Shown here in pieces: positions 24,537 through 46,981 of a stretch of DNA of 64,000 bases. Position numbers and translations under genes: made by a program. Where the stretch lies: NCBI GenBank assembly GCA_035308025.1, contig DATGHL010000047.1, positions 430 to 64,429 of the forward strand, given 5' to 3'. Position 1 is the first letter of the stretch. Each line of letters opens with the position of its first letter. This DNA comes from Candidatus Binataceae bacterium (GTDB lineage: Bacteria; Desulfobacterota; Binatia; Binatales; Binataceae). Under the pieces are notes generated by a model. The model ran no database searches. It had not been told where the DNA came from and saw only the letters and a list, made by a program, of their open reading frames with translations.

Positions 24537-25669
24537 GCGGTTTGACCAGGTTGCTTCGGCCGCTCGCGGGCCTCGCCGCAATTGCCGCCTTGCTCGCGCT
24601 CAGCGCGGCCGGATGCGACAGTGCGCCGCCGGCCGACAGCAGCGACAGTCCGCCGCCGATGGTGAGTCTGATCCATCAGGATCAGGGCGCGGATTTGCTC
24701 CAGTTACCACGCGGCGGCGTGCCGGGCATGACCGAGACGACGCTAGCGGCGGTCGATCTGCCGGGCGTGCTCGAGACCACCGGGCAGATCACCTTCGATG
24801 ATCGCCGCGTCGCCAATATCATCTCGCGCGTCACCGGGCGGATCGAAGAGGTCCGCGTCTCCCAGTGGGACAATGTCCAGCGCGGGCAGCCGATCCTGAC
24901 GCTTTACAGCCCCGACTTCATGACCGCGGAGGCCGAATATCTCCAGGCCAAGGCGGCCGGGCCGGCGCTGGCCCCCGGGGGCGCCGACAGCGATCAGTTC
25001 GCGCGCTCGATGCTCGAGGCGGCGCGCCGCAAACTCGATCTGCTGGGCATCAGCCCCGCGCAGATCGAGAGCATCTGGACCGCCGCGCCAAGCTTCGTGA
25101 TGCGCGCGCCGATCAGCGGCACGATCGTGCAAAACCAGGCGCTGCGCGGCTCCGCGGTCAATCCCGGCGACGTCCTCTACTCCGTCGGCACGCTCGACGA
25201 CGTCTGGGTCGTCGCCGACATCTACGAGGACGAACTGGCCCGCGTGCGGGTCGGCCAGCAGCTCGAAGCCGTCGCGACCGCTTATCCCAGCGAGACCTTT
25301 TACGGCACGATCGCCCGCATCAGCCCGGGCGTCGATCCCAACACGCACACAATTCAGATCCGCTGCGAGGTCAAGAACCCCGGCCTTAAGCTCAAGCCGC
25401 AGATGCTCGCCGTCGTGAAGATCCTCGTCCAGCCCGGGCACGCGCTAGTTGTACCGGTCGATGCGCTCGTCTTTGAAACCGACGCCTATATGGCCTATGT
25501 CGATACCGGCAACGGCCGTATCGAGCAGCGCAAGGTGGCGATCGCCTCCTGGAACCAGCCCGGCTTTGCCCGCGTGGTATCGGGACTCACGGCCGGCGAT
25601 CGCGTCATCACCGGCGAGTCGTTGCAGGTCGATCAGTTGTGGAACCGCGCTCACGGGGCCAAATCCTGA
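24533..25669 (+). CDS. Efflux RND periplasmic adaptor (membrane fusion protein, CusB/CzcB-like)
   Basis: 378 aa with HlyD/biotinyl-lipoyl-like and beta-barrel segments. It sits between the OMF and the RND pump. Confidence 0.8.
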   Translation: MSGLTRLLRPLAGLAAIAALLALSAAGCDSAPPADSSDSPPPMVSLIHQDQGADLLQLPRGGVPGMTETTLAAVDLPGVLETTGQITFDDRRVANIISRVTGRIEEVRVSQWDNVQRGQPILTLYSPDFMTAEAEYLQAKAAGPALAPGGADSDQFARSMLEAARRKLDLLGISPAQIESIWTAAPSFVMRAPISGTIVQNQALRGSAVNPGDVLYSVGTLDDVWVVADIYEDELARVRVGQQLEAVATAYPSETFYGTIARISPGVDPNTHTIQIRCEVKNPGLKLKPQMLAVVKILVQPGHALVVPVDALVFETDAYMAYVDTGNGRIEQRKVAIASWNQPGFARVVSGLTAGDRVITGESLQVDQLWNRAHGAKS

Positions 25670-25715
25670 GCCGCTTTTTTCAACCGCCGGTCAAGAAAAC
25701 GGCGCAGCAACGGCA

Positions 25716-28700
25716 ATGATCCAGTGGCTGATGGACCTCGCGCTGAGCGCGCGAGTGGTGGTGGTGAGCGCGGCCGTGTTGTTGGCGCTCGCCGGACTCT
25801 TTTCCTTCACCCAACTCGACATCGAAGCCTATCCCGATCCGGTGCAGCCGATGACCGAGGTGCTGACCCTGCCCAACGGTCTCAGCGCCGAGGAGGTCGA
25901 ACGCCTGGTCACGGTGCCGACCGAGTACGGGATGAGCGGGATGCTGCATCTGACCGCGATGGAATCGATTTCGCTCTACGGCCTCTCCGACATTCGCCTC
26001 TATTTCGATTGGGATAGCAATTACGAATTCGACCGCACGCAGACCATCAACCAGTTGACCTTCGTCACGCTGCCGCCAGGCATCCAGGCCGGGCTCTCGC
26101 CGCAAAATGCGGTCGGCGAGATTTATCGCTACACCGTCCAGAGTCCCAATCACGATCTCATCAGCGAGAAGGAAATCGAAGACTGGGTTTGCGAAAAGCA
26201 GCTCAAGACCGTCCCCGGTGTCCTCGATGTCGAAGGCTTCGGCGGCTTGACCAAGGAATATCACGTCGATCTTGACCCGCCGAAGCTCAACCACTACGGC
26301 ATCCCGCTCACGCAAGTCATTACGGCGATTCAGAATTCAAACACCAACTCCGGCGGCAGCTACCTCAACCTCGGCGAGCAGGCCTTCGATGTCCGAGGAA
26401 TCGGCCTGATCCAAAACCTCGATGACATTCGCAACATCGTCCTCGCGACCAGCAAATCTACGCCGATCAAGCTCGCAAATGTCGGCGACGTTTCCGTCGG
26501 CTGGGCGCCGCGCCTCGGAATTGTGGGGATGAACTACCAGGACGAGGTGGTCAGCGGCATCGTCCTGATGCGCAAGTACGGCAATACGCTGGAGACTCTG
26601 AAGGGCGTCGAGCAGAAGGTAAATCAACTCAATACGCGGGGCATGCTGCCTGCGGGCTACAAGATCGTCCCCTACTACGACCGCACTGGCCTGGTTTACA
26701 CCACCCTCCACACGGTCTTCGAGAATCTGCTGATCGGGATGATGCTGGTCTTTCTGGTCCTGCTGTTTTTTCTCGGTAATCTGCGCGCCGCGCTGATCGC
26801 CGCAGTCAATATCCCGCTCGCGATGTGCGGGGCTTTTATCCTGCTCCACCTGAGCAACACCCCCGCCAATCTGTTGTCACTGGGCGCGGTCGATTTCGGC
26901 ATCATCATCGATTCGACCATCATCGTAGTGGAGAACATCTTTCGCCATCTCACCTCCAGCGAGCTGCCCAGCGAGGGCAAACGGCAGCGGATTGGCCGGG
27001 CGGCCCGCGAAGTCGGCGGGCCGATGTTCTACTCGACCCTGATCTTCCTCATCGCCTTCCTGCCGCTCTTCACGATGCGCGGGGTCGAGGGCGCGATCTT
27101 CTCGCCGATGTCGCATACCTACGCCTATGCGCTGACGACCGCGATTCTGCTCGCGGTCACGCTCTCGCCGGCGCTGTGTTCTTTCCTCCTGCGCCGGGGG
27201 ATGCGCGAGACGCACAACTTCATATGGGAAGCCTTCTCGCATTCCTATCACGCGCTCTTCGTTCGGGTGCTGCGCTGGCCGCGCGCGACGGTGACGATAA
27301 TCATGCTGCTGGTGGCCGGTGGGCTCGCGCTCTTCCCGCGCCTGGGCGGTGAGTTTCTGCCGAAATTGGAGGAGGGCAATATCTGGGCGCACGCAATCAT
27401 GCCGACCACGATCAACCTGCCTCAGGGCGCCAAACTGGTGAGCCGGATGCGCACCGTTTTTCTCTCCTTCCCCGAAGTGGCGAGTGTTGTCTCGCAGCTC
27501 GGCCGTCCTGACGACGGCACCGAGACGACCAGCTTTTTCAACATCGAATTTGCGGTTGATCTCAAACCCGCCGCGGCTTGGCCCGCAGATGTTACCAAGG
27601 AGAAACTGGTCAATCAGATGGACGAAAAACTGCGCCACCGCTTTCCGGGCGTTGATTTCTCCTATTCACAGAATATCGAGGACAATATCGACGAAGCCCT
27701 GTCCGGCGTGAAGGCGGGCTCGAACGCCGTCAAAATTTTCGGTTACGATCTGAAAAGCGACGAGACCCTTGCCGGCCAGATCACCCGGGTGCTTGGCCGG
27801 GTGCGCGGCGTCACCGACGTCTTCATGTTCCGCTCGCTCGGCCAGCCCAACATTGTCATCCGGCCCGACCGCGCGGCCGCGGCCCGTTACGGCCTCAATT
27901 CCGGCGACGTCGCGGCGATCGTGCAGGCCGCGATCGGCGGCCAGGCGGTCACCCAGGTCTACGAAGGTGATCGCACTTTCAATCTGGTGGTGCGCTGGAT
28001 GCCCCAGTATCGCCAGACCGTCGCAGCGATGCGCGGGATTCGCGTCAATGTGCCGGGTGGCGGGGTCGTCCCGCTCGGCCAGATCGCGCAAATCGCGGCC
28101 TCGGAGGGCGCGTCGTTCATCTATCGCGGCAATTTGCAGCGCTACGTGCCGGTGCGTTTCTCGGTTACCGGCCGCGATTTGCAGGGCGCCGTCGCCGAGG
28201 CCAAACGGCGCGTTGCCGACGAAGTCCATCTCCCTGAAGGCACCCATCTGGAATGGGCGGGCGAGTACGGCGAACTCCAGGCCGCCAATCATCGGCTCGC
28301 CATCGTGGTGCCCATCGCGCTGATTCTGATCATGGGCGTCCTCTTTGCGGCTACGCAATCGGTCGTCAACACGCTCATCCTGATGGCGCAAATTCCGCTC
28401 GCCTGTCTGGGTGGCGTGTTGGCCCTGGTCGTGACGCATACGCCCTTCAGCGTCTCTGCCGGGGTCGGCTTCATCTCAATTTTCGCGATCGCGATCATGG
28501 ACGGCATCCTGCTCAACTTTTACATTCACCAGCTTTGGGAACAGGGCTATTCGGCGATGGATGCGATCGTAATGGGCGCGGATCGGCGCTTCCGCGCGGT
28601 CATGATGACGGCGCTGGTCGATGGCCTCGGGCTGTTGCCGGCGGCGCTCTCGACGCGCATCGGTGCGCAGACTCAGCGCCCGCTCGCGATCGTCGTGATC

Positions 28701-28853
28701 GGCGGCGCGCTCTCGATCGCCTTGCTGACGCGGGTTTTTCAACCCACCCTGATGTTCCTCTTCCGCCGCTACATCGGGCTCTCCGAGGAGCGTCGCACGA
28801 TGGCCAATGGCGGACCGGATCCGACGGCCGCGGCTCCCGGCATGAGCGTATAG
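25716..28853 (+). CDS. Heavy-metal-efflux (HME) RND permease, CusA/CzcA family
   Basis: 1045 aa. TM4 has GAVDFGIIIDSTIIVVENIFRH (compare CzcA GAIDFGIIVDGAVVIVEN). The start was trimmed to the ATG at 25716 (MIQWLMDLALS...). Confidence 0.85.
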   Translation: MIQWLMDLALSARVVVVSAAVLLALAGLFSFTQLDIEAYPDPVQPMTEVLTLPNGLSAEEVERLVTVPTEYGMSGMLHLTAMESISLYGLSDIRLYFDWDSNYEFDRTQTINQLTFVTLPPGIQAGLSPQNAVGEIYRYTVQSPNHDLISEKEIEDWVCEKQLKTVPGVLDVEGFGGLTKEYHVDLDPPKLNHYGIPLTQVITAIQNSNTNSGGSYLNLGEQAFDVRGIGLIQNLDDIRNIVLATSKSTPIKLANVGDVSVGWAPRLGIVGMNYQDEVVSGIVLMRKYGNTLETLKGVEQKVNQLNTRGMLPAGYKIVPYYDRTGLVYTTLHTVFENLLIGMMLVFLVLLFFLGNLRAALIAAVNIPLAMCGAFILLHLSNTPANLLSLGAVDFGIIIDSTIIVVENIFRHLTSSELPSEGKRQRIGRAAREVGGPMFYSTLIFLIAFLPLFTMRGVEGAIFSPMSHTYAYALTTAILLAVTLSPALCSFLLRRGMRETHNFIWEAFSHSYHALFVRVLRWPRATVTIIMLLVAGGLALFPRLGGEFLPKLEEGNIWAHAIMPTTINLPQGAKLVSRMRTVFLSFPEVASVVSQLGRPDDGTETTSFFNIEFAVDLKPAAAWPADVTKEKLVNQMDEKLRHRFPGVDFSYSQNIEDNIDEALSGVKAGSNAVKIFGYDLKSDETLAGQITRVLGRVRGVTDVFMFRSLGQPNIVIRPDRAAAARYGLNSGDVAAIVQAAIGGQAVTQVYEGDRTFNLVVRWMPQYRQTVAAMRGIRVNVPGGGVVPLGQIAQIAASEGASFIYRGNLQRYVPVRFSVTGRDLQGAVAEAKRRVADEVHLPEGTHLEWAGEYGELQAANHRLAIVVPIALILIMGVLFAATQSVVNTLILMAQIPLACLGGVLALVVTHTPFSVSAGVGFISIFAIAIMDGILLNFYIHQLWEQGYSAMDAIVMGADRRFRAVMMTALVDGLGLLPAALSTRIGAQTQRPLAIVVIGGALSIALLTRVFQPTLMFLFRRYIGLSEERRTMANGGPDPTAAAPGMSV

Positions 28854-28925
28854 TTAATTCGCCCCGTGCAACTCTGCCCGGCGGGCGGGAAACGTGCTAA
28901 ACGCCATCGTGGAGGGCATCCCATC

Positions 28926-29780
28926 ATGGCGGAGCTCGAAACCTTAGCCACAGGATTTGGACTACTGGAAGGTCCGCGTTGCGACGCTCGCGACCGGCTC
29001 TATTTCAGTGACGTCCCTAACGGCGGCGTTTACCGGCGCAGTCCCGACGGTGCGATCGAAACGCTGATTCCGAAACGGCGCGGCGTCGGCGGCATCGCGC
29101 TGAACGCCGGCGGCGGCATCGTCTGCACGGGCCGCGGCCTGATCCACTGGAACGAAGCGACGCGCACCAGCCGCGATCTCTTCACTCATTGGGAGGGGCG
29201 GCCGCTCAACGGCCTCAACGACCTCCAGCCCGACGACCACGGCTCGATCTTCGTCGGCTCGCTCGAGCATAACGCGCTCGAAGAAGGCGCCAAGCGGATT
29301 CCGGGCAGTCTCTACCGCGTCGATCCCGACGGCACCGTGCTCAAGCTCTACGAAGGCATTGAGACTACCAACGGGATGGGCTTCAGTCCCGATCGCAAAT
29401 ATCTCTACCACGCCGACTCGACCACCAAGTCAGTATGGGTCTACGACGTGCAGCCCGATCGCACCGTCAAGGATCGCCGGGTCTTCGCGCGGATGCCCGC
29501 CGGATGGCCCGACGGGCTTGCGATCGACGCCGACGGCGGCGTTGTCGTCGCAATCGTGAACCACGGCGAGGTCGTCCGCTTCAAGCCCAACGCCACCCTC
29601 GATTGGCGCCTCGACGTGCCCGCGCAGATGGTCACGAGCCTGACCTTTGGCGGCAAGGATTTCCGCGACCTCTATATCGTTACGGCGGACAATACCGAGG
29701 ACAAAGCAAAGAAGGGCACGGTCTTCCGCACGCGCGTCGAAATTCCGGGTCTGCCGATTCCGCTCGCGCGCTTCAATTGA
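28926..29780 (+). CDS. SMP-30/gluconolactonase/LRE-family protein (six-bladed beta-propeller lactonase)
   Basis: 284 aa with family motifs (LEGPRCDA...LYFSDV, NGMGFSPD, DGLAIDADGG). Confidence 0.75.
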   Translation: MAELETLATGFGLLEGPRCDARDRLYFSDVPNGGVYRRSPDGAIETLIPKRRGVGGIALNAGGGIVCTGRGLIHWNEATRTSRDLFTHWEGRPLNGLNDLQPDDHGSIFVGSLEHNALEEGAKRIPGSLYRVDPDGTVLKLYEGIETTNGMGFSPDRKYLYHADSTTKSVWVYDVQPDRTVKDRRVFARMPAGWPDGLAIDADGGVVVAIVNHGEVVRFKPNATLDWRLDVPAQMVTSLTFGGKDFRDLYIVTADNTEDKAKKGTVFRTRVEIPGLPIPLARFN

Positions 29781-30704: not shown

Positions 30705-32066
30705 ATGAACTCACCAAGGTCTCCAATGCTGCAAACCTTTCAGTGTCGCGAGATTTTACGGGCGCTGGCAATCGTGCCTGTGGTCTGCGCACTACTACTG
30801 GCGGTCAATGGCGGCTCAGCGCGGGCCGAACAGGGCACCCCGCCGCCGCCCGGCACGAAAATCACAATGCAAAATTGGCAGCAATACAAAGACTTCATGC
30901 CTGATGGTTTGGCCGCCCTGTTTGCTGGGAAATTTCAATGGAAGTTGCCTGCAAATGCCGAAATCGACATAGGTCCCACGGTGAACGTTCCGGAGCCCCC
31001 GACCTACCTTGCAGCATCCGAAAAATACGGTAACCAGGTGCAAGTGGTTCACCTACCAAACGGACATTTGGACGTGCGTAATTATGTTGCCGGCGTGCCG
31101 TTTCCAGACCCACAGGAGCCTGACAAGGGCTACAAGGTTCTGGTTAATCTATGGTATTCATACCGACCGCACTTGAACGTCGCCAATATCAAATATCCAG
31201 TTAGAGATTGTATCGTCGATCGCTTTTCGAATATGAATTGCGAATCAATCGATATCGTCTATCGCCAAGAAGGTTATAATACTGATCCGGGAGTGCCCGT
31301 CAGTGAATCAAACAACGTCTGGTACACCGAATATCTAATGGTTGAGGCGCCTGAACAAGCCAAATATACCGCGCAACTGACGCTGTTCTATAAGGATAAT
31401 CAAACCTTTCAAGACGAATATGTCTTCGTTCCAAACCTACGACGCACCCTGCGCCTGTCATCGAGCGCCCGTTGCTCGCCGTTGCTTGGTAGTGATTTAG
31501 CCCAGGATGATGCTCAAGTGTCGGGATTCAATGGCGGAATCGGAGTATTCGACGCGAAGTACTTGGAACGCAAGAAAATAATCGCACTGACGGGTCTGTA
31601 CAACTATTACGCGGTTGGTCATAACTTTCCCATGGGTTTCTACCAACCGCTCATGTTTCCACCGCCATCAATAGGACAGTGGCAGGTGCGTGATGTCGAT
31701 GTACTGGATATTCGACGCGTGCCTTCTGAGGCCCTTGGATACTGCTATGGTAAACGAATCATGTATATCGATACATATTACCATACGGGCCACTGGCAGG
31801 ACCTGTATGATAACAACATGAACCTATGGAAGACGGCTTTGTTAGCGGTGCCTGACGCGGCCAAAGTCCCAGGAGTGCCAGGTGGACATGCCCCCGGACT
31901 CGACGGTTTCTTCACGCTGTGGGACGTGCAGAACGACCACCTGACAATAATAACGGGCCTCAACGAATCAGGTGAGGGCTACTTTGTTAATTCTGATGCA
32001 CCGAAGGAGTTTCAGGACTATAACAGGTTCGGAACACCAGGTGGCCTATCAGAAATTATGCGCTAG
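30705..32066 (+). CDS. Secreted protein of unknown function, probably DUF1329 (LolA-like 'outer membrane lipoprotein-sorting' family)
   Basis: 453 aa with a signal peptide (ALAIVPVVCALLLAVNGGSARA). A strong RBS (AAGGAG) lies 7 nt upstream. The size and composition match the about 450-aa DUF1329 family. The family assignment comes from memory, not from a search. Confidence 0.5.
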   Translation: MNSPRSPMLQTFQCREILRALAIVPVVCALLLAVNGGSARAEQGTPPPPGTKITMQNWQQYKDFMPDGLAALFAGKFQWKLPANAEIDIGPTVNVPEPPTYLAASEKYGNQVQVVHLPNGHLDVRNYVAGVPFPDPQEPDKGYKVLVNLWYSYRPHLNVANIKYPVRDCIVDRFSNMNCESIDIVYRQEGYNTDPGVPVSESNNVWYTEYLMVEAPEQAKYTAQLTLFYKDNQTFQDEYVFVPNLRRTLRLSSSARCSPLLGSDLAQDDAQVSGFNGGIGVFDAKYLERKKIIALTGLYNYYAVGHNFPMGFYQPLMFPPPSIGQWQVRDVDVLDIRRVPSEALGYCYGKRIMYIDTYYHTGHWQDLYDNNMNLWKTALLAVPDAAKVPGVPGGHAPGLDGFFTLWDVQNDHLTIITGLNESGEGYFVNSDAPKEFQDYNRFGTPGGLSEIMR

Positions 32067-33450: not shown

Positions 33451-34155
33451 TTGACTAATCATCGTCATGAGCGTCATCCTGAATTGAACACGATCGCCAC
33501 CACGTCAACGCAGCCTTCGCGCTTCTCACGTTTCGCGACGGGAAAGTTGAATCGCGCCAGCCTCAGCCACACCGCCTCCAACCTCGGCGTCGCGCTGCTC
33601 TTTTTCGCCACGTTGATTCCGCATGCCGCGAATTTCGGCGGCGCTCCCGCCAACTGGATCTGGATCGTCGGCGCCGCCCTGATGGGCGTGCTGTCACTCG
33701 TCCGCCTCCCGCCCATCGCGACCGCGATTAATCTGCGCTCCGTGACGGCGACTGCGATCATGATGCTCGCGCCGCCTTTGCTCTTGAACAACGCCGCGCC
33801 CTCCAGCGGCGTGCTCGCAGTCGCGGCGCTGATCGTCGAACTCGTCGGCGTGATCATTACCCAGAGCGCGCGGCTCTATCTCGGACGCAAGTTTGCGCTG
33901 CTGCCGGCCAATCGCGGAATCGTTAGCCGCGGACCTTTCGCCTTTATTCGCCATCCGATTTACGCCGGCTGGCTGATTCTTTCGGTCGGTTATGTGATGG
34001 CCTATCCCAACGCGCGCAACCTCCTCGCGCTCGCGGTGACTGTGCCGTTCATGATCTGGCGCATCCAGCTTGAAGAGCAGCTCCTGCAGCAGGACGCCGC
34101 GTATCGCGCCTACTGCGCCGTCACTCCATATCGTCTGCTGCCGCTGATCTTCTGA
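33451..34155 (+). CDS. Membrane methyltransferase of the ICMT/PEMT (isoprenylcysteine carboxyl / phospholipid methyltransferase) family
   Basis: The C-terminal motif is GPFAFIRHPIYAGWLIL...EEQLL, and there are several TM helices. The start is uncertain; the tracked ORF begins at a TTG and an internal ATG lies at 33682. Confidence 0.6.
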   Translation: MTNHRHERHPELNTIATTSTQPSRFSRFATGKLNRASLSHTASNLGVALLFFATLIPHAANFGGAPANWIWIVGAALMGVLSLVRLPPIATAINLRSVTATAIMMLAPPLLLNNAAPSSGVLAVAALIVELVGVIITQSARLYLGRKFALLPANRGIVSRGPFAFIRHPIYAGWLILSVGYVMAYPNARNLLALAVTVPFMIWRIQLEEQLLQQDAAYRAYCAVTPYRLLPLIF

Positions 34156-34182
34156 CCTGAGCGACCCTTAGCTGCCCATCTC

Positions 34183-34215
34183 GAATTTCTTTTGAGCACC
34201 GCCCCATCGGGCTGT
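34183..34215 (+). terminator. Imperfect hairpin followed by a T8 run (..GCACCGCCCCATCGGGCTGTTGCATTTTTTTT) after the methyltransferase gene
   Basis: Read from the sequence. Such a T-run is rare in this GC-rich window. Confidence 0.35.
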
Positions 34216-34339
34216 TGCATTTTTTTTGAACTCGGTCAGCGAGGATTCGGAACTGATAATCTTTACAACCGTGGCTAATACGGAAGGAGGAGCAATAGAA
34301 AAAGCGGCTGCGTAGTTATCCGTCTGTCTGGGTTCTGAG

Positions 34340-35470
34340 GTGTTGGGGACGCCTGCACGGGTCATCACGATTATAGCTGCGGCGATGCTGGGGATAGCAT
34401 TGGCGGCAGCGAAGAGCTCTGCGGGCGACGTCACGACGTCATCTGCGGACGGGCTCGACATCACCAATTCATCGACCAGATTGCTGCCCGACGATCAGGT
34501 TAATCTGAGTCAGACGTTCGGCATGTGGCAGAATCTGCACGCCACGCATGAGTGGACGCACAGCTCCAACGCGCTCGCGGTGTCGCGGACCCTGCTGCAG
34601 GTCGACGAGAACTACCGGCTGAACGAGAACAACACGTTTTTCGCCCGTGAGTGGTTCGTCTACGAGCCGCCTACGCCTTCAACAGTTCGATCAACACGGT
34701 TCGATTCTGCCGTGCAGAACGCCTACTTGACCCCGTTCTGCGGCAAGACCGGACGTCCTCGAGCAATGCCTGTAAGACTGATCGCGAAGTGGCGCCGAGC
34801 ATCGGCCACTTCCAAAACGATTTTACAACAACTATTCAGTGCGCGGCGTCTGGTGGGAGAACAAGACCGGCCCGCTGACGACTTTCGTCGGCAACCAGAT
34901 CGTGGTGTGGGGCCAGTCGCTGGCGTTCCGCATCGGCGACGTCATCAATCCGCAGGATTTTGTCTGGAACTTTGGTTTCGCCAACCTCGAGCAATCGCGC
35001 AACGCGCAGTGGATGATCCATCCGATTCTGAACCTGCCGGAGTGGGGTCCGCTGCAGTCGAATTTCCTCGAAGTGGTGGTCCAGTCGGGCTTCCAGCCGC
35101 AATGGTGGGAAAACAGCTTCGGCGACGGCCGCTTCGAAGCGCCCGGCGGCGCCGTCAAGGATGGCCGTGCCGGGACCTTTGGCTCGCACACCCTGAGCAT
35201 GCGGTTTGACGTCGCCTACGACAATCAGTCGCGACCCCAGGAGAATTTGACCGCCAACAGCGGCCCGGGCCGTTCTTCGGCTTCGCCACGCAGTTCAGTT
35301 CGCCCGGTAATAATACGCTGATTTGGAAGCCAAGTTTCTATTTGCGCTGCAATACCAAAAATGCTGTCTCGGCGGGCAGCGCCCCGTTCGCCTGCTGGCA
35401 AGGTGGCAGCATCATCGGTGCGCCCTTGCTGCACACCTTCTGGAACTGCCTCGCTGCGCTCATGGGCGCA
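34340..35470 (+). pseudogene. Frameshifted, internally deleted and 3'-truncated tandem duplicate of the downstream 693-aa secreted-protein gene (35811-37892)
   Basis: Three ORF fragments in different frames (34340-35209, 34651-34878, 34839-35321) align in order with residues of about 1-375 of the intact protein. There is an approximately 13-aa deletion. Some stretches are near-identical at the nucleotide level, for example the WWENKTGPLTTFVGNQIVVWGQSLAFRIGDVINPQD block. The RBS AAGGAGGAG is retained at about 34273 but the ATG is lost. Nothing corresponds to the C-terminal half. Confidence 0.85.
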
Positions 35471-35810
35471 TGATGGCGGCCCCACGCCCGACCAACAATA
35501 AAACGCGGTGGTATCAGTCCCGATTTTTGTTGCGGGGGGGTATTGCGTTCACCTCACCGGTTAGCTAAATCCTGCCAGAATCAGTCCGTCAGGCGAGGCG
35601 CGACTGAGGAGGAGGACCGGAAAGCAAGCCCCGCAGCAGCAGTAGCGACAAATTGTCGCGGGCTTGACAAATTAATTTTTGTGCGCAAGTAAGGTTCGTT
35701 GCGCGAGCGGGATTCGTCACGATCCCGGAGGAGTTGGACTGGGATCAGCAACGTGACGCATAGCGGTCGGGACTACCGCCAGGCGTCACATGCAGCGAGA
35801 AGGAGGAGTT

Positions 35811-37892
35811 ATGGGAGCAAGTTTCGGGGGAGCGAAAAAGTTTCTCGGAGTGGCCGCGGCGGCGATGCTCGCGGTAGCATTGGGCGCTGCAAATAGCTCC
35901 GCGGGCGACGTCACGGCGTCACCTGCGGACGGTCTCGACATCACCAATTCATCGACCAAGTTGTTGCCCGACGGTCAGGCCTCGGAGTCGAGCTGGCTGA
36001 GCGGCTTTCACATGTCGGGTTATGCAACCCAGACCTTCGGCATGTGGCAGGATCCCTCGAGCACGCACGCTTGGACCCGCAGCTCGAACCAGTTGGCGGT
36101 CTCGCGCACGCTGCTGCAGGTGGACGAGAACTACCGGCTGAACGAGAACAACACCTTCTTCGCCCGCGAGTGGTTCGTCTACGAGCCGGTGTATGCCTAC
36201 AACTCGTCGAACAACACCAACATCTCGGCAATCGACAACGCCTTCTTGTCGCCGTTCTGCGGGAAGACGGGCACGCCGTCTTCCGACCGCTGCAAGATCG
36301 GTCGCGAGACGGCGACGAGCCCGGGCCATTTCTACAATGACATCTACAACAACTACCAGGTGCGCGACGCCTGGTGGGAGAACAAGACCGGCCCGCTGAC
36401 GACCTTTGTCGGCAACCAGATTGTCGTCTGGGGTCAGTCGCTGGCGTTCCGCATCGGCGACGTCATCAATCCGCAGGATCTGCTGTGGAACTTCGGTTTC
36501 GCCAACTTGGAGCAGTCGCGCAACGCGCAGTGGATGGTCCATCCGATCCTGAACCTGCCGGAGTGGGGACCGCTTCAGTCGAATTTTCTGGAGCTGGTAA
36601 TCGAGCCGGGCTTCCAGCCGCAATGGTGGGAAAATAGCTTCGGCGACGGCCGTAACAACGGCCCCGGGGCCGACACGAAGGCCGGTCGCTACGCGACCTA
36701 CGCGCCACACGGCAATCCCAGCCTGCGCTTCGACATCGGCTACGACCATGCGTTCGACCCGAGCATGAACGTTACGACCGGCCCCGGGCCTTGGAACGGG
36801 ATCGCCACGCCTTTCTATTCTGCGGGCAACAACACCATGCCGTGGAAGCCGATCGGCTACGTTAATTGCGGCAACCACCCGACGCCCTTCAGCCCGCACG
36901 GCGGTAACTGTCTAGTCAGCGGCTCAATTGTCGGACCGCCGCTGCAGCATATCTTCTGGGAGTGCCTCAGCGGTGCCCCGGGGACCTACGCGAAGACAAA
37001 TCCGCTGCCGGCGGGTCTGCGCAAAGCCCCATTTGGCCCTGGGGGCTGCAACCTGACCCTGTCGCACAACAATCTGTCCTTCGGCGCGGCGGGCGACTAC
37101 GCCTTGTGGGACACCGGTCCGTACCACATTCCCGGTATGCAGCCGTCGAACTGGAATGACGGCGCGCGTTTTCACACGCTCATCGGTTCAACTGAACTGA
37201 CGGCGTTGTACTACAACGACAACCTCAACGGCGGCTTTCCGGCCTTCCGGTTCGGCGGCAATGGGCTGCCCTACTATACGAATCTGGATCAGATTTACTT
37301 CCCAGACATCCAGATCGTGGGTGTGACCGCGGATCGGCCGCTGCCGGTGCCGGCCTCGGTCAGCGAGTTTCTGCCGATTGTCGGCCGCGCGGAAGTGACC
37401 TACACCAATCACGAGCAGTTCTACGACAGCCGGCCGACGGCCTTCAGCGGCGTGCGCTACTCGGACGTGGTGAAGGAGATGGTGGCGCTGGACATCGACC
37501 AGGCCTACGCGCCGTGGCTGACCAAGACCGGCAATCTGACGGCCTTCTTCGAGGTCTTTGACGACATCACGATGGACAATTCGAAGCTGACGCCGGTGAC
37601 GGCATTGGACTCGAAGCGCAACGACAAGAATGAAGTCTACGCCTTGGCGAGCATCGGAACCGGCTACTACAACGAAGACATCGAGCCGACCTGGACGATG
37701 ATCTATCAGCCCAAGGGGACGACCTTCGCGCTGTTCCCGACGCTGGTGCTGAATCCGCCTTGGACCAAGAAGTACTTCGTCAAGTTGCAGGCGATCGATG
37801 TGTTCGGCAGCGATCCGTTGCACGGCCTGGGCCTGTTCAAGGGTCAGAATCTGCTGACCGCCCAGTTCCAGTACAACTTCAACGTGCTCTAG
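35811..37892 (+). CDS. Large secreted Trp/Asn/Gly-rich protein of unknown function, possibly DUF1302-like outer-membrane protein
   Basis: 693 aa with a signal peptide (FLGVAAAAMLAVALGAANSSAG). AAGGAGGAG lies 5 nt upstream of the ATG at 35811. It has 8 Cys and two WWEN motifs. The C-terminus (QFQYNFNVL) is beta-rich, as expected for a barrel-like protein. It co-occurs with the DUF1329-like gene. The DUF1302 assignment is an inference. Confidence 0.5.
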   Translation: MGASFGGAKKFLGVAAAAMLAVALGAANSSAGDVTASPADGLDITNSSTKLLPDGQASESSWLSGFHMSGYATQTFGMWQDPSSTHAWTRSSNQLAVSRTLLQVDENYRLNENNTFFAREWFVYEPVYAYNSSNNTNISAIDNAFLSPFCGKTGTPSSDRCKIGRETATSPGHFYNDIYNNYQVRDAWWENKTGPLTTFVGNQIVVWGQSLAFRIGDVINPQDLLWNFGFANLEQSRNAQWMVHPILNLPEWGPLQSNFLELVIEPGFQPQWWENSFGDGRNNGPGADTKAGRYATYAPHGNPSLRFDIGYDHAFDPSMNVTTGPGPWNGIATPFYSAGNNTMPWKPIGYVNCGNHPTPFSPHGGNCLVSGSIVGPPLQHIFWECLSGAPGTYAKTNPLPAGLRKAPFGPGGCNLTLSHNNLSFGAAGDYALWDTGPYHIPGMQPSNWNDGARFHTLIGSTELTALYYNDNLNGGFPAFRFGGNGLPYYTNLDQIYFPDIQIVGVTADRPLPVPASVSEFLPIVGRAEVTYTNHEQFYDSRPTAFSGVRYSDVVKEMVALDIDQAYAPWLTKTGNLTAFFEVFDDITMDNSKLTPVTALDSKRNDKNEVYALASIGTGYYNEDIEPTWTMIYQPKGTTFALFPTLVLNPPWTKKYFVKLQAIDVFGSDPLHGLGLFKGQNLLTAQFQYNFNVL

Positions 37893-38018
37893 AATCGAGA
37901 TCGACGAGCAAAACGGCGGCGGGCGCTCATCGCGCCCGCCGCTCATGTTTTGGAGAATCGGCAGGGGTTCCGCCCCCCAAGTCAATCCGCGCTGCGTAGG
38001 AAGCGCGCTGGCCGCGCC

Positions 38019-43704: not shown

Positions 43705-44625
43705 GTGCAGTTGCAAGAGGCAAAGGTTTTGAGCGCGGCGGGTCCCGAGCATGTGGCGGTGATGGTGGCGGAGGTGGTGGGACTCGTGCGCGCTTGTAAT
43801 CCGCTGGTCGTGGTCGACGCGACGGTGGGGACGGGCGGCCATGCCGAGGCGCTTTTGGAAGCGACCGGAGCTCATCTGATAGGCCTCGATCGGGATTGCG
43901 GCGCGCTGCAGGTTGCGGCGCGCCGCCTCGAGCGTTTCGGTGCGCGCGCGAGTCTCCATCGGGGCAATTTCGCTGAGTTGTCGGCGATCCTCGATCATGT
44001 CGGGACGCCGGCGGTCGGCGCGATCGTCGCCGACCTCGGGATGAGCAGTTTTGCTCTGAACGATCCCGCGCGTGGTTTCAGCTTTGCTGCGGAGGGACCG
44101 CTTGACATGCGGATGGACGATCGCCAGCCGCTGCGCGCCTATGACCTGGTGAACGAAGAGAGCGAGGATGAAATCGCCCGCTTGATCCAGACTTACGGCG
44201 AGGAGCGTCATGCGCGGCGGATTGCGCGGGCGCTCGTCGCGGCGCGACGGCGGCGGCCGCTCGAAACCACCGGGGAGCTGCGCGCCGCGATCGAAGGGGT
44301 GATGGGCGGGCGACGGCACGGCGGGATCAATCCGGCGACGCGAACTTTTCAGGCCTTGCGCATCGCCGTCAACGACGAGAGCGCGAACCTGACGGCGCTG
44401 CTCGCAGCGGGGCCGGCGCGCCTGACCGCGGGCGGCCGCATGATCGTAATGGCCTATCACTCGCTGGAGGATCGGCCGGTCAAGCAGCGTTTTCGCGAAC
44501 TCGCCGGCGCGGCCGGCTTCGCACTGATCACACGGCGGGCGGTGCGTCCGGCCGCGGCAGAGATCGCGCGCAATCGGCGCGCGCGGAGCGCACGCTTACG
44601 ATGCCTCGAGAAAACGCTCGGCTGA
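43705..44625 (+). CDS. rsmH: 16S rRNA (cytosine1402-N4)-methyltransferase
   Basis: 306 aa with SAM-binding motifs (VDATVGTGGHA, DLGMSS). Confidence 0.9.
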   Translation: MQLQEAKVLSAAGPEHVAVMVAEVVGLVRACNPLVVVDATVGTGGHAEALLEATGAHLIGLDRDCGALQVAARRLERFGARASLHRGNFAELSAILDHVGTPAVGAIVADLGMSSFALNDPARGFSFAAEGPLDMRMDDRQPLRAYDLVNEESEDEIARLIQTYGEERHARRIARALVAARRRRPLETTGELRAAIEGVMGGRRHGGINPATRTFQALRIAVNDESANLTALLAAGPARLTAGGRMIVMAYHSLEDRPVKQRFRELAGAAGFALITRRAVRPAAAEIARNRRARSARLRCLEKTLG

Positions 44626-44909
44626 AACGACGGCCGCCGCTGACGGTCAAGGCGTCGCGCTGGTGGCCGGCGATTCTGGGACTCGCGGCGGTGGTCGCGG
44701 GCTTCGCCGCGCTGATGGCGCGGCTCGAAGTGACGCAGGAAGGGCTGCGGCTTTCGGCCCTGCGTGACGAACAGCGGGACCTGGAAGAACGCAACCGGCG
44801 CCTGCGGCTGGAGGTAGCGGAACTCGGGTCACACGAGCGGCTGCGCGCGATCGCCGCGCAGGACGGACTGGGGCCGCCGGCGGCCGGTCACGTCACGACG
44901 ATGCCATGA
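44601..44909 (+). CDS. ftsL: Cell division protein FtsL-like (single TM + coiled coil)
   Basis: 102 aa, positioned between rsmH and ftsI. Confidence 0.6.
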   Translation: MPRENARLKRRPPLTVKASRWWPAILGLAAVVAGFAALMARLEVTQEGLRLSALRDEQRDLEERNRRLRLEVAELGSHERLRAIAAQDGLGPPAAGHVTTMP

Positions 44910-46981
44910 ATGCGGTGTTCAAACAGCGGCGCGCGCGGATTGGCGTCCTGACGGCGGCACTCGGGGCGATGCTCGCGGTGGTCGCCGTCCGCCTCATGAT
45001 GCTGGTTTTGATCGACGGGCCGCGGTTGGCCTCGATGGCGACGAACGAGCAGAGCGGAGAACTCGAGCTGGCCGCCGTGCGCGGCGATATCGTCGATCGC
45101 AACGGCAGACTGCTGGCCTCGATGCAGCCCTGCCGCTCGGCGTACGTACGGCCGCGCCAGCTGCTGGAAAAGAGCACGAGCGCAGAGCGCGCGCGCCTGG
45201 CCGCGGCGCTTGGAGTGGATGCCGACGCCCTGGAAGCGCGGCTCAAGAGTCCGGCGCCGTTTGTATGGCTGTCGCGCCGTTTAGAGAGCGCGCAGGCCGA
45301 TGAAATCGAAGGACTCCATCTTGCGGGCGTCAGTTTAGCGCCCGAGAACGTAAGGGCTTATCCGGAGGGTTCCCTGGCCGCGGCGGTGGTTGGTCAGGCG
45401 GGGCTGGACGGTCAGGGGCTCTCCGGCCTCGAACTCCAATACGATCGGGTGGTGCGCGGCGAGGCCGTTAAGCTGCGCTTCTACCACGATGCGCATAACC
45501 ATCCGATCTTTGATTCGCCGGTTGAGCTCAGCAGCGCGCGGCCCGGCGCGCGCCTGGAGTTGACGATCGACGCTGCTATCCAAGCCGATGCGGAGAACTC
45601 GCTGCGAGCAGAGGTGCGCAGCAGTGGCGCGCGTCACGGCACCGCGATCGTGCTCGACCCTTTTACCGGCGAAGTGCTCGCGCTGGCCGGCGCGAGCGCC
45701 GATCCCGCGCGTGATGGTGAGCGGCTCCACGACGCCGCGGTCGAGGACGCCTTCGAGCCGGGCTCGACTGTGAAGGGACTGCTCGGCGCGATTGCGCTTG
45801 ACGATCATGCCATCGACACGCGGCAGCAGTTCTACTGCGAGAACGGGGCATGGCAGTTCGGCGGCAAGACGATTCATGACGACAGTCCCCATGGCTGGCT
45901 GGATCTCGCCGGCATTGTCGAAGTATCGTCGAATATCGGCGCCGCGAAGATCGCGCGGACACTCGGCGCCGAGCGCTATTACGCGGGGCTGCAGGCTTTC
46001 GGAATCGGCCGCCGGAGCGGAATCGATCTGCCCGGTGAGAGCGCAGGTTTAATTCGCTCGCCCGCGCATTGGCGTCCGGTTGATCTCGCCGATCACGGCT
46101 TTGGCCAGGGGATCGGGGTGACCCCGATTCAGCTCGCCGTGGCCTACGCCGCGATCGCCAATGGCGGCGTGGTGATGCGTCCGTATGTCGTGAAGTCGAT
46201 CACCGACGCGTCGGGTACTTTGCGCCATACGCCGCAGGTTTTGCGTCGGGCGGTGTCGCCGGCCGCGGCGCATACGATGAATGATCTCCTGCGCAACGTG
46301 GTCAGCGCGCCCGACGGCACCGGCCGGCTCGCGCAGGTGGCGAATTTCACGGTCGCCGGCAAGACTGGCACGGCGCAGATGGTGAATCCTGCGACCGGCG
46401 CATACTACCAGAACCGCCTGGTTGCTTCGTTTGTCGGCTTTGTCCCGGCGAAGGATCCGCGCTTGGTCATCCTGGTGGTGCTCTACGACGTGCCTGACCG
46501 TCATTTCGGCGGACTCTATGCCGCACCTATCTTCAGCCAGATTGCCACGGCTGCGCTAGGGCATCTTGACGTTGAGCCGGAGCGGCCCGCCACGACGCTG
46601 GCGAGTATTCTGCCGTTGCCGGGCAATCTCGATGGTGCGTTCGAGGATGCGCGTAAAGATGCACCGGACCGATCGTCTGCGAGCGGTTCCGATGATCAAT
46701 TTCAAACCGCGCGCGCGGGCCGCGCCGCGGCGAGCGGGCTGACGCCGAATTTCCTCGGTCTAAGTCTGCGCGGCGCGCTGGCGCTGGCGCGCGCCGAAAG
46801 CCTCAATCCGGAGATCGAGGGCGCAGGATACGTGACGGCGCAAACGCCGGCGCCAGGACTACCGGTCGGTAGTGCGATGAAACTGGTGTTGGCCGACGCC
46901 GCCGAGACATCTTCTATGCGATTGCGTGCGCAGCGCAGCGTCCGCGCCGCAAGCGAGCTCGCGTCACGGAGGCGCCGATGA
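44906..46981 (+). CDS. ftsI: Peptidoglycan D,D-transpeptidase FtsI (PBP3) with C-terminal PASTA-like domain
   Basis: 691 aa with the transpeptidase motifs STVK, SSN and KTGT. Residues 46739-46900 code for LTPNFLGLSLRGALALARAESLNPEIEGAGYVTAQTPAPGLPVGSAMKLVL, which matches the PASTA consensus. Confidence 0.85.
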   Translation: MNAVFKQRRARIGVLTAALGAMLAVVAVRLMMLVLIDGPRLASMATNEQSGELELAAVRGDIVDRNGRLLASMQPCRSAYVRPRQLLEKSTSAERARLAAALGVDADALEARLKSPAPFVWLSRRLESAQADEIEGLHLAGVSLAPENVRAYPEGSLAAAVVGQAGLDGQGLSGLELQYDRVVRGEAVKLRFYHDAHNHPIFDSPVELSSARPGARLELTIDAAIQADAENSLRAEVRSSGARHGTAIVLDPFTGEVLALAGASADPARDGERLHDAAVEDAFEPGSTVKGLLGAIALDDHAIDTRQQFYCENGAWQFGGKTIHDDSPHGWLDLAGIVEVSSNIGAAKIARTLGAERYYAGLQAFGIGRRSGIDLPGESAGLIRSPAHWRPVDLADHGFGQGIGVTPIQLAVAYAAIANGGVVMRPYVVKSITDASGTLRHTPQVLRRAVSPAAAHTMNDLLRNVVSAPDGTGRLAQVANFTVAGKTGTAQMVNPATGAYYQNRLVASFVGFVPAKDPRLVILVVLYDVPDRHFGGLYAAPIFSQIATAALGHLDVEPERPATTLASILPLPGNLDGAFEDARKDAPDRSSASGSDDQFQTARAGRAAASGLTPNFLGLSLRGALALARAESLNPEIEGAGYVTAQTPAPGLPVGSAMKLVLADAAETSSMRLRAQRSVRAASELASRRRR

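Follow-up and report, generated by a model that had tools for sequence, protein, structure and literature searches.

Ordinary bacterial pseudogenes can form when one paralogue of a pair decays, by start loss, frameshifting indels, and internal and terminal deletions. Silent pseudogene cassettes, such as Neisseria pilS, Anaplasma msp2 and Borrelia vls, serve as conversion donors for a surface-protein gene that is expressed. DUF1302 (PF06980) proteins, among them AmeA of Castellaniella defragrans, PP_0765 of Pseudomonas putida and Sama_1588 of Shewanella amazonensis, combine a signal peptide with a large beta-barrel, and usually have a DUF1329 protein as partner. The two domain families have been tied to a beta-propeller protein and an RND exporter, with a proposed role in envelope-component export or hydrophobic-substrate handling (bioRxiv 10.1101/072470; bioRxiv 10.1101/2020.07.04.188060; PMC6394551).

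The window analysed here, meaning the whole 64,000-nucleotide stretch of DNA, is part of a metagenome-assembled genome from soil, assigned to Candidatus Binataceae, and contains an intact gene for a 693-residue protein that, like DUF1302 proteins, has a predicted signal peptide and large beta-barrel. A damaged homolog that we call psi lies 5' of this gene (the neighbour), and both are members of a divergent DUF1302 branch that is specific to Binataceae and in which tandem arrays are frequent. Psi is very probably what remains of a paralogue of the neighbour, of a lineage that we call A, that was formerly full-length and functional and has since decayed. As a pseudogene it is unremarkable; the gene it descends from is an old sister of the neighbour, and related soil bacteria still carry that gene in intact form. 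It shares with other bacterial pseudogenes the lesions, the inherited low dN/dS and the indel polymorphism within a population, its only extra being a local conversion tract with the surviving neighbour. The features discussed below are collected in Table 1.

Table 1. Features of psi, the intact gene and their surroundings, in window coordinates
Feature	Position	Strand	Remarks
DUF1329 (LolA-like) gene	30705..32066	+	E 1e-29; 2.3 kb upstream of psi
Pseudogene (psi)	34282-35473	+	5' of intact 693-aa gene 35811-37892
Lost start	34282..34297	+	SD-like GGAAGGAGGAG, then CA-ATA; intact gene has GAAGGAGGAG-TT-ATG at 35799-35813
TAG stop	34313..34315	+	In frame with former start and signal-peptide coding region
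Psi body	34316..35452	+	About residues 3-390 of full-length family; paralogue lineage A (tblastn, trees)
Gene-conversion tract	34413..34504	+	Common to neighbour 35893-35984; encodes mature-protein N-terminus
39-nt (13-codon) in-frame deletion	34510..34511	+	Exact; S61-T73 of family numbering lost
Frameshift 1 (-1 nt)	34669	+	
Frameshift 2 (net +1 nt)	34697..34701	+	First frame restored for 19 codons
Frameshift 3 (-1 nt)	34753	+	
Frameshift 4 (-1 nt)	34821	+	
Conserved core, WWENKTGPLTTFVGNQIVVWGQSLAFRIGDVINPQD ... FQPQWWEN	34824..35123	+	89% identical to 36345-36644
TC dinucleotide	35058..35059	+	Deleted in independent JGI assembly; sole difference in 10 kb
Frameshift 5 (-1 nt)	35264	+	Within variable-loop region
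Candidate deletion-junction interval	35453..35536	+	L002/L003 first-copy homology stops at 35452; L053 intergenic homology restarts at 35536
Intergenic motif GGGGGTATTGCGTTCACCTCACCGGTTAGCTAAA	35536..35569	+	Conserved with L053 8162-8195
Intact 693-aa gene	35811..37892	+	Alternative ATG at 35790; predicted signal peptide and outer-membrane beta-barrel
Terminator-like hairpin	37915..37943	+	After intact gene; none after psi

Used as a tblastn query, the intact protein matched 34346-35470 over its residues 13-390 with a joint E of ~1e-116, the match being spread across frames 2/1/2/1/3/2. A second copy of the 5' half of the gene, as reported in a first-pass annotation of this DNA, is therefore present. 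That annotation placed the copy about 1.1 kb upstream, which is the length of the copy; its start lies ~1.5 kb 5' of the start of the intact gene. Blastn and repeat searches pair the two as tandem, same-orientation blocks of 627 nt (82%), 300 nt (89%), 127 nt (87%) and 124 nt (86%), spaced 1480-1521 nt start to start. Overall, DNA identity ranges over 82-91%, and exact runs reach 45 nt at most. The segment paired with 36361-36540, earlier called nearly identical, is 90.6% identical with exact runs no longer than that same 45 nt, so that the wording was too strong. In the conserved core the exact runs shared with the neighbour measure 45, 33 and 28 nt, and pairs from different genomes are themselves 84-87% identical there; the likeness of psi to its neighbour in this segment is thus mostly family-wide conservation. 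Past the core (35130-35452) nucleotide identity is 39-67% to the neighbour and 75-88% to the orthologue in L002, and over the psi body as a whole it is 74% and 82%, respectively. In the variable loop (35264-35452; FGFATQFSSPGNNT.IWKPSFYLRCNT...) L002 and P0008 agree with psi almost residue by residue, and the neighbour is at 37%.

Psi combines clear homology to the family with disabling lesions of start, stop, frame, internal deletion and truncation, features by which a pseudogene is recognized. The ribosome-binding motif is kept and the start is lost, as had been annotated: GAAGGAGGAG can be read directly at 34283-34292, followed by CA-ATA where the start has changed from ATG to ATA. An in-frame TAG adds to this loss, occupying the place of codon 2 of MRFRVC in intact relatives (5' ends of L042 and L003). 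The adjoining leader (34316-34345) matches an N-terminus of the MRFRVCLSSDVFGG type, as seen in other lineages and not in the neighbour. The in-frame deletion, previously put at about 13 aa, is exactly 39 nt long and takes out the invariant H67 and G70 at the beginning of the first barrel strand. Five frameshifts were counted, where the earlier figure had been at least three. In all, 5 of 75 family-invariant residues are gone from psi, the other three through the substitutions P82L, D186G and P266S.

The missing C-terminal half was likewise noted correctly. Homology stops at 35452 and the last reading frame now meets a TGA at 35471-35473; with the closest intact proteins as queries (E = 10, word size 2), no C-terminal-half remnants were found in 35453-35810. 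The spacer (35440-35830) has no second copy within the window, and its sole match to related loci is a 33-nt motif of L053, which lies ~250 nt 5' of the downstream copy in both loci. These observations point to a deletion of ~1.5 kb, its size estimated from L053, as having taken the 3' half of psi, and we infer that psi was formerly full-length and was cut later, not born partial. Consensus scans detected no terminator after psi and no promoter for psi or for the intact gene, and an Rfam scan detected no RNA families in 34000-36000.

At the amino acid level the reconstructed psi protein is 80% identical to L002, 76% to L045 and 75% to P0008, all three encoded by intact, full-length genes of other Binataceae, and 66% identical to its neighbour. 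Trees group psi with these three and the first copy of L003 (bootstrap 98.5-99.5%) and leave the neighbour outside. Taken with a dS of 0.81 to the neighbour, this placement speaks strongly against the description of psi as its recent partial duplicate. Trees of the N-terminal and C-terminal halves conflict; the family has a reticulate history, and the definition of lineage A covers the N-terminal half only.

Synteny adds a position to this descent. The L003 locus reads czcC-czcB-czcA, SGL, MFS, A-type copy, second copy; its lineage-A gene is full-length and immediately follows the MFS gene, the same syntenic position as that of psi. Because in L003 a second copy follows the A-type one, we regard the tandem pair as old. 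L002, L042 and L045, the intact genes most closely related to psi, each occur singly and in a genomic context unlike that of psi, so that L003 is the only locus that speaks for positional orthology. The L053 locus reads RND (83%), SGL (87%), ICMT, two intact copies, and both copies place outside lineage A in the tree; a two-copy array thus occupies the same place, with both members non-A. The comparison of relatives' loci proposed earlier recovers a two-gene tandem with an A-type copy, in L003. Of the description as a decaying tandem partial duplicate, the decay and the tandem arrangement stand and the origin as a partial copy of the neighbour does not. Instability of the locus is upheld to the extent that the tandem arrangement is prone to recombination. 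Its 'accessory' status is doubtful: the flanks (czcCBA-type RND, SGL lactonase, MFS, ICMT-like) are syntenic in L003 and L053, and the dcw cell-division cluster begins 6 kb downstream.

Pairwise substitution rates indicate that psi was a working gene through most of its history. Against L002, dN is 0.078 and dS 0.69 (ratio 0.11); against L042 the ratio is 0.14, and the intact pair L042/L002 gives 0.094. Against the neighbour, dN is 0.24 and dS 0.81 outside the 5' tract, with a dS of 0.50 inside it. Psi also carries three substitutions at family-invariant sites and a frameshifting polymorphism, both of which would fit relaxed selection, its pairwise dN/dS to the orthologues still being 0.11-0.14. 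Relative-rate tests were mixed, with 25 amino acid changes unique to psi and 4 to L002 in one comparison, and 24 and 15 in that with L042; the amino acid rate of psi is weakly raised. Low dN/dS with mixed rate tests fits the pattern expected if inactivation was recent.

Homogenization by gene conversion had been offered as an explanation for the similarity of the two copies, and it holds only locally, over ~90 nt (34413-34504). In this tract 25 of 26 informative sites side with the neighbour, 19 of them as a consecutive run (permutation p < 5e-5), and identity in windows reaches 0.90 with the neighbour vs 0.63 with the orthologue. Nucleotides unique to psi and the neighbour are concentrated likewise, 15 of 28 falling within 67 nt (34429-34495). 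In the core, identity is mostly family-wide as described above; a core dS of 0.44 for psi and the neighbour, vs 0.60-0.66 for psi and its orthologues and 0.60-0.95 for other pairs, is only suggestive of conversion there.

Psi is present in three assemblies (NCBI TPA, ENA, JGI; contigs of 255 kb, 144 kb and 71.8 kb) that are identical over 6.5-10 kb except for one 2-nt indel within psi itself; the third assembly, L061, matches the window sequence exactly. The sequence of the intact gene does not vary among them. The indel, a deletion of TC, disrupts a 160-aa ORF (34839-35321) that has no signal peptide. Gene callers predict 269-289-aa and 160-aa 'hypothetical proteins' in the psi region, and an exact look-up of the products of the two frame-2 ORFs found none on record.

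The second copy in L003 is itself frameshifted, possibly through Nanopore errors. We considered recurrent decay of one tandem copy (L003 copy 2, L004 copy 1) and set it aside because frameshifted copies, the solitary L039 included, are almost confined to MFD long-read assemblies. Some of the indels in these MFD copies fall in short homopolymers.

Other origins of psi have to be weighed against descent from a full-length lineage-A gene. A recent tandem duplication of only the 5' half of the neighbour, now decaying, would read the high identity as recency, and would account for same-orientation copies 1480-1521 nt apart with blocks 86-91% identical, for the common SD-like motif and for a clearly neighbour-like tract at 34413-34504. 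We consider it highly improbable. Genes in other genomes are nearer to psi than the neighbour is, at the bootstrap values given above, and the dS to the neighbour is 0.81 outside the 5' tract, 0.44 in the core and 0.50 in the 5' tract; identity to the neighbour collapses beyond 35130, where that to L002 persists; the leader is of the MRFRVCLSSDVFGG type rather than that of the neighbour; and the full-length trees of L002, L045 and P0008 do not suggest transfer from this genome's neighbour. It is unlikely, too, that psi was born truncated, as an ectopic partial copy or horizontal fragment of a lineage-A gene from elsewhere that never functioned here. A dN/dS of 0.11-0.14 over a dS of ~0.7 indicates purifying selection for nearly all of the divergence, so that any source would need to be a much closer gene that is not in view, and the 14% divergence of the conversion tract from the neighbour argues for long co-residence. 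L003, moreover, has its full-length lineage-A gene at the exact syntenic position, between the MFS gene and the second copy. What such an origin would explain is the solitary state of the nearest intact relatives, in other contexts; recombinant histories among family members agree with it, and with 64 kb of the genome in view a source copy may lie outside.

Two further explanations were weighed. An assembly artefact, with metagenomic paralogues or strains collapsed or mis-joined from short reads, would agree with the short-read origin of the genome (record names with k141), the exact runs between the paralogues and the 2-nt indel that distinguishes one assembly. We judge it very unlikely, with the same structure recovered three times and with five 1-nt indels in 600 nt, a lost start and a clean 39-nt deletion being a combination rare in short-read assemblies; exact repeats of at most 45 nt are far below k=141, so no graph mis-joins are expected. 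The remaining explanation is that psi is kept for a purpose, either as a silent conversion donor for barrel loops or for a short product (the 160-aa ORF). Like pilS, msp2 and vls, psi is promoterless, startless and truncated and sits beside an expressed gene; its variable segment is bordered by conserved blocks, and there is evidence that it took part in at least one conversion. Having lost its start and 3' end, psi retains the core, the lineage-specific variable loop and the ...HTFWNCL block, and recombinant paralogues occur in the family. It differs from those systems in being a single copy, not an array, with many frameshifts, of which that at 35264 lies in the variable segment and would kill a recipient gene. 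The conversion tract is old, N-terminal and outside the variable loop, and the sole population variant breaks the 160-aa ORF. Silent-cassette systems are recognized by several cassettes and traceable variation of the expressed gene, and we find one copy in the window and no variation of the intact gene among the three assemblies. Retention for a purpose is accordingly hard to credit, and so, to the same small degree of belief, is the more specific proposal of a loop reservoir used for occasional conversion that alters exposed parts of the barrel, e.g. under phage pressure. If true, the latter would make the tandem arrays and recombinant paralogues of Binataceae signs that a free-living soil bacterium diversifies its barrel in this way.

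Returning to the decayed lineage-A paralogue, we propose the following sequence of events. An old tandem pair, an A-type gene and then a second family gene, would have stood after the MFS and ICMT genes. While both genes still worked, ~90-125 nt at the 5' end of the mature-coding region were probably exchanged between them; the mosaic is directly visible, and its timing is our reconstruction. The upstream copy would then have been inactivated by loss of its ATG, the TAG, the 39-nt deletion, five frameshifts and three invariant-site substitutions. A further deletion appears to have taken away the sequence that encoded 12 or more barrel strands and the C-terminal end, and with it part of the spacer; the end of homology is observed, and the ~1.5 kb size of this loss is an estimate from L053. 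Judged by its sequence, the remnant could form no barrel; no function is plausible for it, and it is not expected to be translated. It is probably now neutral DNA that is still gathering indels, and its exact matches of up to 45 nt possibly keep it as a substrate for recombination with the intact gene.

In practical terms, 34282-35473 should be annotated as one pseudogene, not as hypothetical proteins of 269-289 aa and 160 aa. The locus also cautions that blocks of ~90% identity between tandem genes may reflect family conservation plus a short conversion tract instead of a recent duplication, and it points to an expanded, recombining DUF1302-like barrel family in Binataceae that current Pfam and NCBIfam models miss. 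We see no wider consequence than these.

The assignment to DUF1302 is transitive. P0001 is 100% identical to the intact 693-aa protein, which matched nothing in Pfam/NCBIfam scans even at E = 10, and P0008 did not match PF06980 even at lenient E (10 or 0.1). By contrast, 27 of 49 aligned homologues match PF06980; those tested score 28.7-32.5 bits (gathering cut-off 23.2) in alignments confined to profile positions 77-212 (~135 of 541), and those passing the gathering score are 49-52% identical to the intact gene. Since homologues match the model and the 693-aa protein does not, we place it in a divergent sister branch by transitive homology, not as a model-defined member. Its surroundings recall described DUF1302 systems in that a DUF1329 gene and RND pumps are nearby, with several differences. 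The DUF1329 gene is parted from psi by two unrelated genes (MFS, ICMT-like) and is absent at the syntenic L003 locus; the RND pump is of the CusA/CzcA type with its own MFP and OMF, not of the COG1033 type; and the beta-propeller is an SMP-30/gluconolactonase, not Ycf48/BNR. For the intact protein, a profile search of PDB sequences yielded nothing beyond chance matches. Its AF2 model (pLDDT 71, pTM 0.74) places ~20 strands after an N-terminal helix (residues 8-28), and the top Foldseek matches of that model in the PDB are chitoporin, MOMP, OccAB and AlgE (E 1e-9 to 1e-7); on this modelled fold, the product of the intact gene is predicted to be an outer-membrane beta-barrel of the divergent DUF1302 branch.

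The pseudogene (34282-35473, + strand) upstream of the intact 693 aa gene (35811-37892, +) is an ordinary one: an old tandem paralogue of this DUF1302-like outer-membrane barrel gene, now reduced to a relic. It bears one short, old gene-conversion tract in common with its surviving neighbour, and would have been inactivated fairly recently and shortened by a deletion. It is the only further copy of the neighbour's product detected by tblastn in the window, matching residues 13-390 at 34346-35470 across frames 2/1/2/1/3/2 (joint E ~1e-116). At the nucleotide level the two align in segments of 627 nt (82%) and 124 nt (86%) by blastn, with ungapped blocks of 300 nt (89%), 127 nt (87%) and 124 nt (86%) at a spacing of 1480-1521 nt (repeat search). 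The first-pass annotation, made by a model from the sequence alone, correctly described a second copy with a lost start, an in-frame deletion of ~13 aa, frameshifts and no C-terminal half, but undercounted the frameshifts, five being needed to stitch the homologous frames, and overstated the near-identity to the neighbour: the segment paired with 36361-36540 is 90.6% identical, and no exact run exceeds 45 nt, the next longest being 33 and 32 nt. Homology to every family member ends at 35452, right after ...HTFWNCL, and no remnants of the C-terminal half were found in 35453-35810. Five of the 75 family-invariant residues in a family alignment are gone, H67 and G70 through the deletion and three by substitution (P82L, D186G, P266S). 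Public gene callers split the pseudogene into hypothetical proteins of 269 aa (JGI record) and 160 aa (ENA record), the annotated fragments lying at window 34340-35209 and 34839-35321 and at L044 2577-3386.

Features of the pseudogene, its intergenic region and the surrounding window
Feature	Position	Remark
OEP of czcCBA-type operon	23250-24536	
CusB-like MFP	24533-25669	
CusA/CzcA RND	25449-28853	ORF start overlaps MFP gene by ~220 nt; listed start probably too far upstream
SMP-30/gluconolactonase beta-propeller	28866-29780	3' of czcCBA-type operon
DUF1329 (LolA-like) gene	30705-32066	
Shine-Dalgarno-like GAAGGAGGAG	34283-34292	followed by CA-ATA in pseudogene, TT-ATG in intact gene
In-frame TAG	34313-34315	pseudogene
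Deletion, exactly 39 nt	between 34510 and 34511	pseudogene
Frame changes (5)	~34669 (-1), 34697-34701 (+1), 34753 (-1), 34821 (-1), 35264 (-1)	stitching homologous frames
Intergenic motif GGGGGTATTGCGTTCACCTCACCGGTTAGCTAAA, 33 nt	35536-35569	conserved with L053 8162-8195
Palindrome 7+1+7, GCGACAA-A-TTGTCGC	35645-35659	~140 nt 5' of intact gene
TTGACA	35664-35669	right after palindrome

An assembly mis-join is unlikely to have created this copy, because the exact repeats it shares with the neighbour (45 nt or less) are far below the assembler k-mer. Across 10,084 nt an independent JGI assembly (L044, 71.8 kb contig) departs from the window at a single place, and a third assembly (L061, ENA, 144 kb contig) is identical to it over 6,483 nt. 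The sole difference in L044 is a 2 nt deletion at 35058-35059, inside the pseudogene; this single population variant is a frameshift that also disrupts the 160 aa ORF (34839-35321) encoding the conserved core, and its confinement to the pseudogene is as neutral decay predicts. Elsewhere in the family, frameshifted copies are nearly confined to MFD long-read MAGs (L003 12780-14846; L004 8157-10070; L028, L033, L036, L038, L039), some of them solitary and broken by as many as seven frame changes. Sequencing error is the probable cause, and not pseudogenisation; the second copies in L003 and L004 could be either.

The proposal that the copy arose by recent partial duplication of its neighbour is contradicted by its tree placement, by its identities to genes of other genomes and by a dS of 0.81 between the two. 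Its reconstructed conceptual product (380 aa) is 80% identical to L002, 76% to L045 and 75% to P0008/L042, versus 66% to the neighbour. These closest intact relatives, from other genomes, are all full-length, mutually orthologous and solitary, and occupy another genomic context. Neighbour-joining trees of the pseudogene's region group it with L002, L045 and P0008, then with the first copy of the L003 array (together lineage A; bootstrap 98.5-99.5%), leaving the neighbour outside with or without the 5' tract (34413-34504). Downstream of 35130 a sliding window gives 39-67% identity to the neighbour and 75-88% to L002, which is why similarity to the neighbour had appeared to fade, and the variable loop (PGPFFGFATQFSSPGNNTLIWKPSFYLRCNTKNAVSAGSAP...) is of the type found in L002 and P0008, the neighbour's being different. 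Excluding the 5' tract, dN and dN/dS are 0.24 and 0.30 against the neighbour; against L002, dN is 0.078, dS 0.69 and dN/dS 0.11, and against L042 they are 0.102, 0.73 and 0.14, compared with 0.055, 0.58 and 0.094 between the intact L042 and L002. These values argue that the pseudogene's lineage was under purifying selection across nearly all its divergence, and that it parted from the neighbour in an old duplication. By a rough calculation from three points, in place of a fitted model, its neutral phase would amount to a few percent synonymous divergence.

Exchange with the neighbour was assessed at informative sites, where the pseudogene agrees with the neighbour or with orthologue L042 and never both. 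Within 34413-34504, 25 of 26 such sites side with the neighbour, 19 of them in one unbroken run whose length was not reached in 20,000 permutations; 15 of the 28 nucleotides common to these two alone among eight sequences fall in 34429-34495. This region, at the N-terminus of the mature protein, is a genuine conversion tract, and its 3' edge coincides with the 39 nt deletion. The event was not recent, since the tract itself is 14% diverged; the sequence the two share there is unlike that of either group of relatives and so gives no direction for the exchange. In the core (34824-35123), five nucleotides are unique to the pair, cross-genome pairs are already 84-87% identical, and a dS of 0.44 lies somewhat below that of other pairs (0.60-0.95); older or patchy exchange is possible there.

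Gene order points to a two-copy array at this site that is older than these species. L003 carries czcC, czcB, czcA (66% aa), an SGL lactonase (85%), MFS (59%), an intact lineage A gene and a second family copy; L053 carries RND (83%), SGL (87%), an ICMT-like gene (53%) and two intact copies. The window matches, with the pseudogene first and the intact gene second, so that the pseudogene corresponds in position to L003 copy 1. The family often occurs in tandem arrays: a survey of 44 loci gave two or three copies at 7. The GGGGGTATTGCGTTCACCTCACCGGTTAGCTAAA motif, a candidate regulatory site, lies ~250 nt 5' of the downstream barrel gene in both the window and L053, and because this shared sequence resumes at 35536, the right edge of the deletion would fall within 35453-35536. 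The loss is estimated at ~1.5 kb (~0.9 kb coding plus spacer), provided that the ancestral locus was like L053.

Neither L053 copy belongs to lineage A. The N-terminal and C-terminal halves give conflicting trees, P0007, P0010 and the L053 copies joining lineage A solely in the C-terminal half (100% bootstrap), which indicates recombinant paralogues; family history is therefore reticulate, and lineage A is defined only for the half the pseudogene keeps. The same pattern (apart by the N-terminal half, within by the C-terminal half, 100% bootstrap) is seen for L053 5324-10539, P0007, P0010, P0005 and P0003.

The neighbour's protein has an identical match in a hypothetical protein from a Candidatus Binataceae metagenome-assembled genome, and nearly all of its hundreds of homologues come from soil genomes assigned to Binataceae or to unclassified 'Deltaproteobacteria'. 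Translation from an in-frame ATG at 35790 would make it 700 aa; this codon lines up exactly with the MRFRVCLSSDVFGG-type start seen in other family members, whereas a strong Shine-Dalgarno sequence within this longer ORF precedes the annotated start (35811). No Pfam or NCBIfam model matched the protein itself, but PF06980 (DUF1302) is hit by 27 of the 49 homologues in the alignment; the ones tested exceed the gathering score, with the match confined to profile positions 77-212 (~135 positions). An AlphaFold2 model built on the homologue alignment has a signal-peptide helix and ~20 beta-strands (pLDDT 71, pTM 0.74), and its closest PDB structures are outer-membrane barrels (chitoporin, MOMP, OccAB, AlgE). 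The 'secreted protein' of the first-pass annotation is therefore an outer-membrane barrel, from a branch of DUF1302 that has diverged. At least 12 model strands (449-691), the C-terminal one among them, lie past the pseudogene's end point, so its product could not close a barrel. Published work associates DUF1302 and DUF1329 proteins with an RND exporter and a beta-propeller protein, with proposed roles in envelope-component export or hydrophobic-compound traffic (bioRxiv 10.1101/072470; bioRxiv 10.1101/2020.07.04.188060; PMC6394551).

The neighbour's family appears as a large, Binataceae-restricted set of 620-740 aa outer-membrane barrels, mostly missed by current Pfam/NCBIfam models, with many paralogues per genome (at least 5 loci in Centralia_MAG_59; three in tandem in L027). 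The intergenic palindrome could be a putative operator beside a -35 box (TTGACA), and a consensus promoter scan called no promoter at 35645-35669. Farther upstream, the SMP-30/gluconolactonase gene follows a complete czcCBA-type heavy-metal RND operon (together 23250-29780), a pump-lactonase pairing kept in L003 and L053 (given as 83-87% aa identity). A dcw cell-division cluster (RsmH/MraW methyltransferase, FtsI-type PBP with PASTA domain; 43705-46981) begins ~6 kb downstream, marking the locus as a chromosomal core neighbourhood and not an obvious island.
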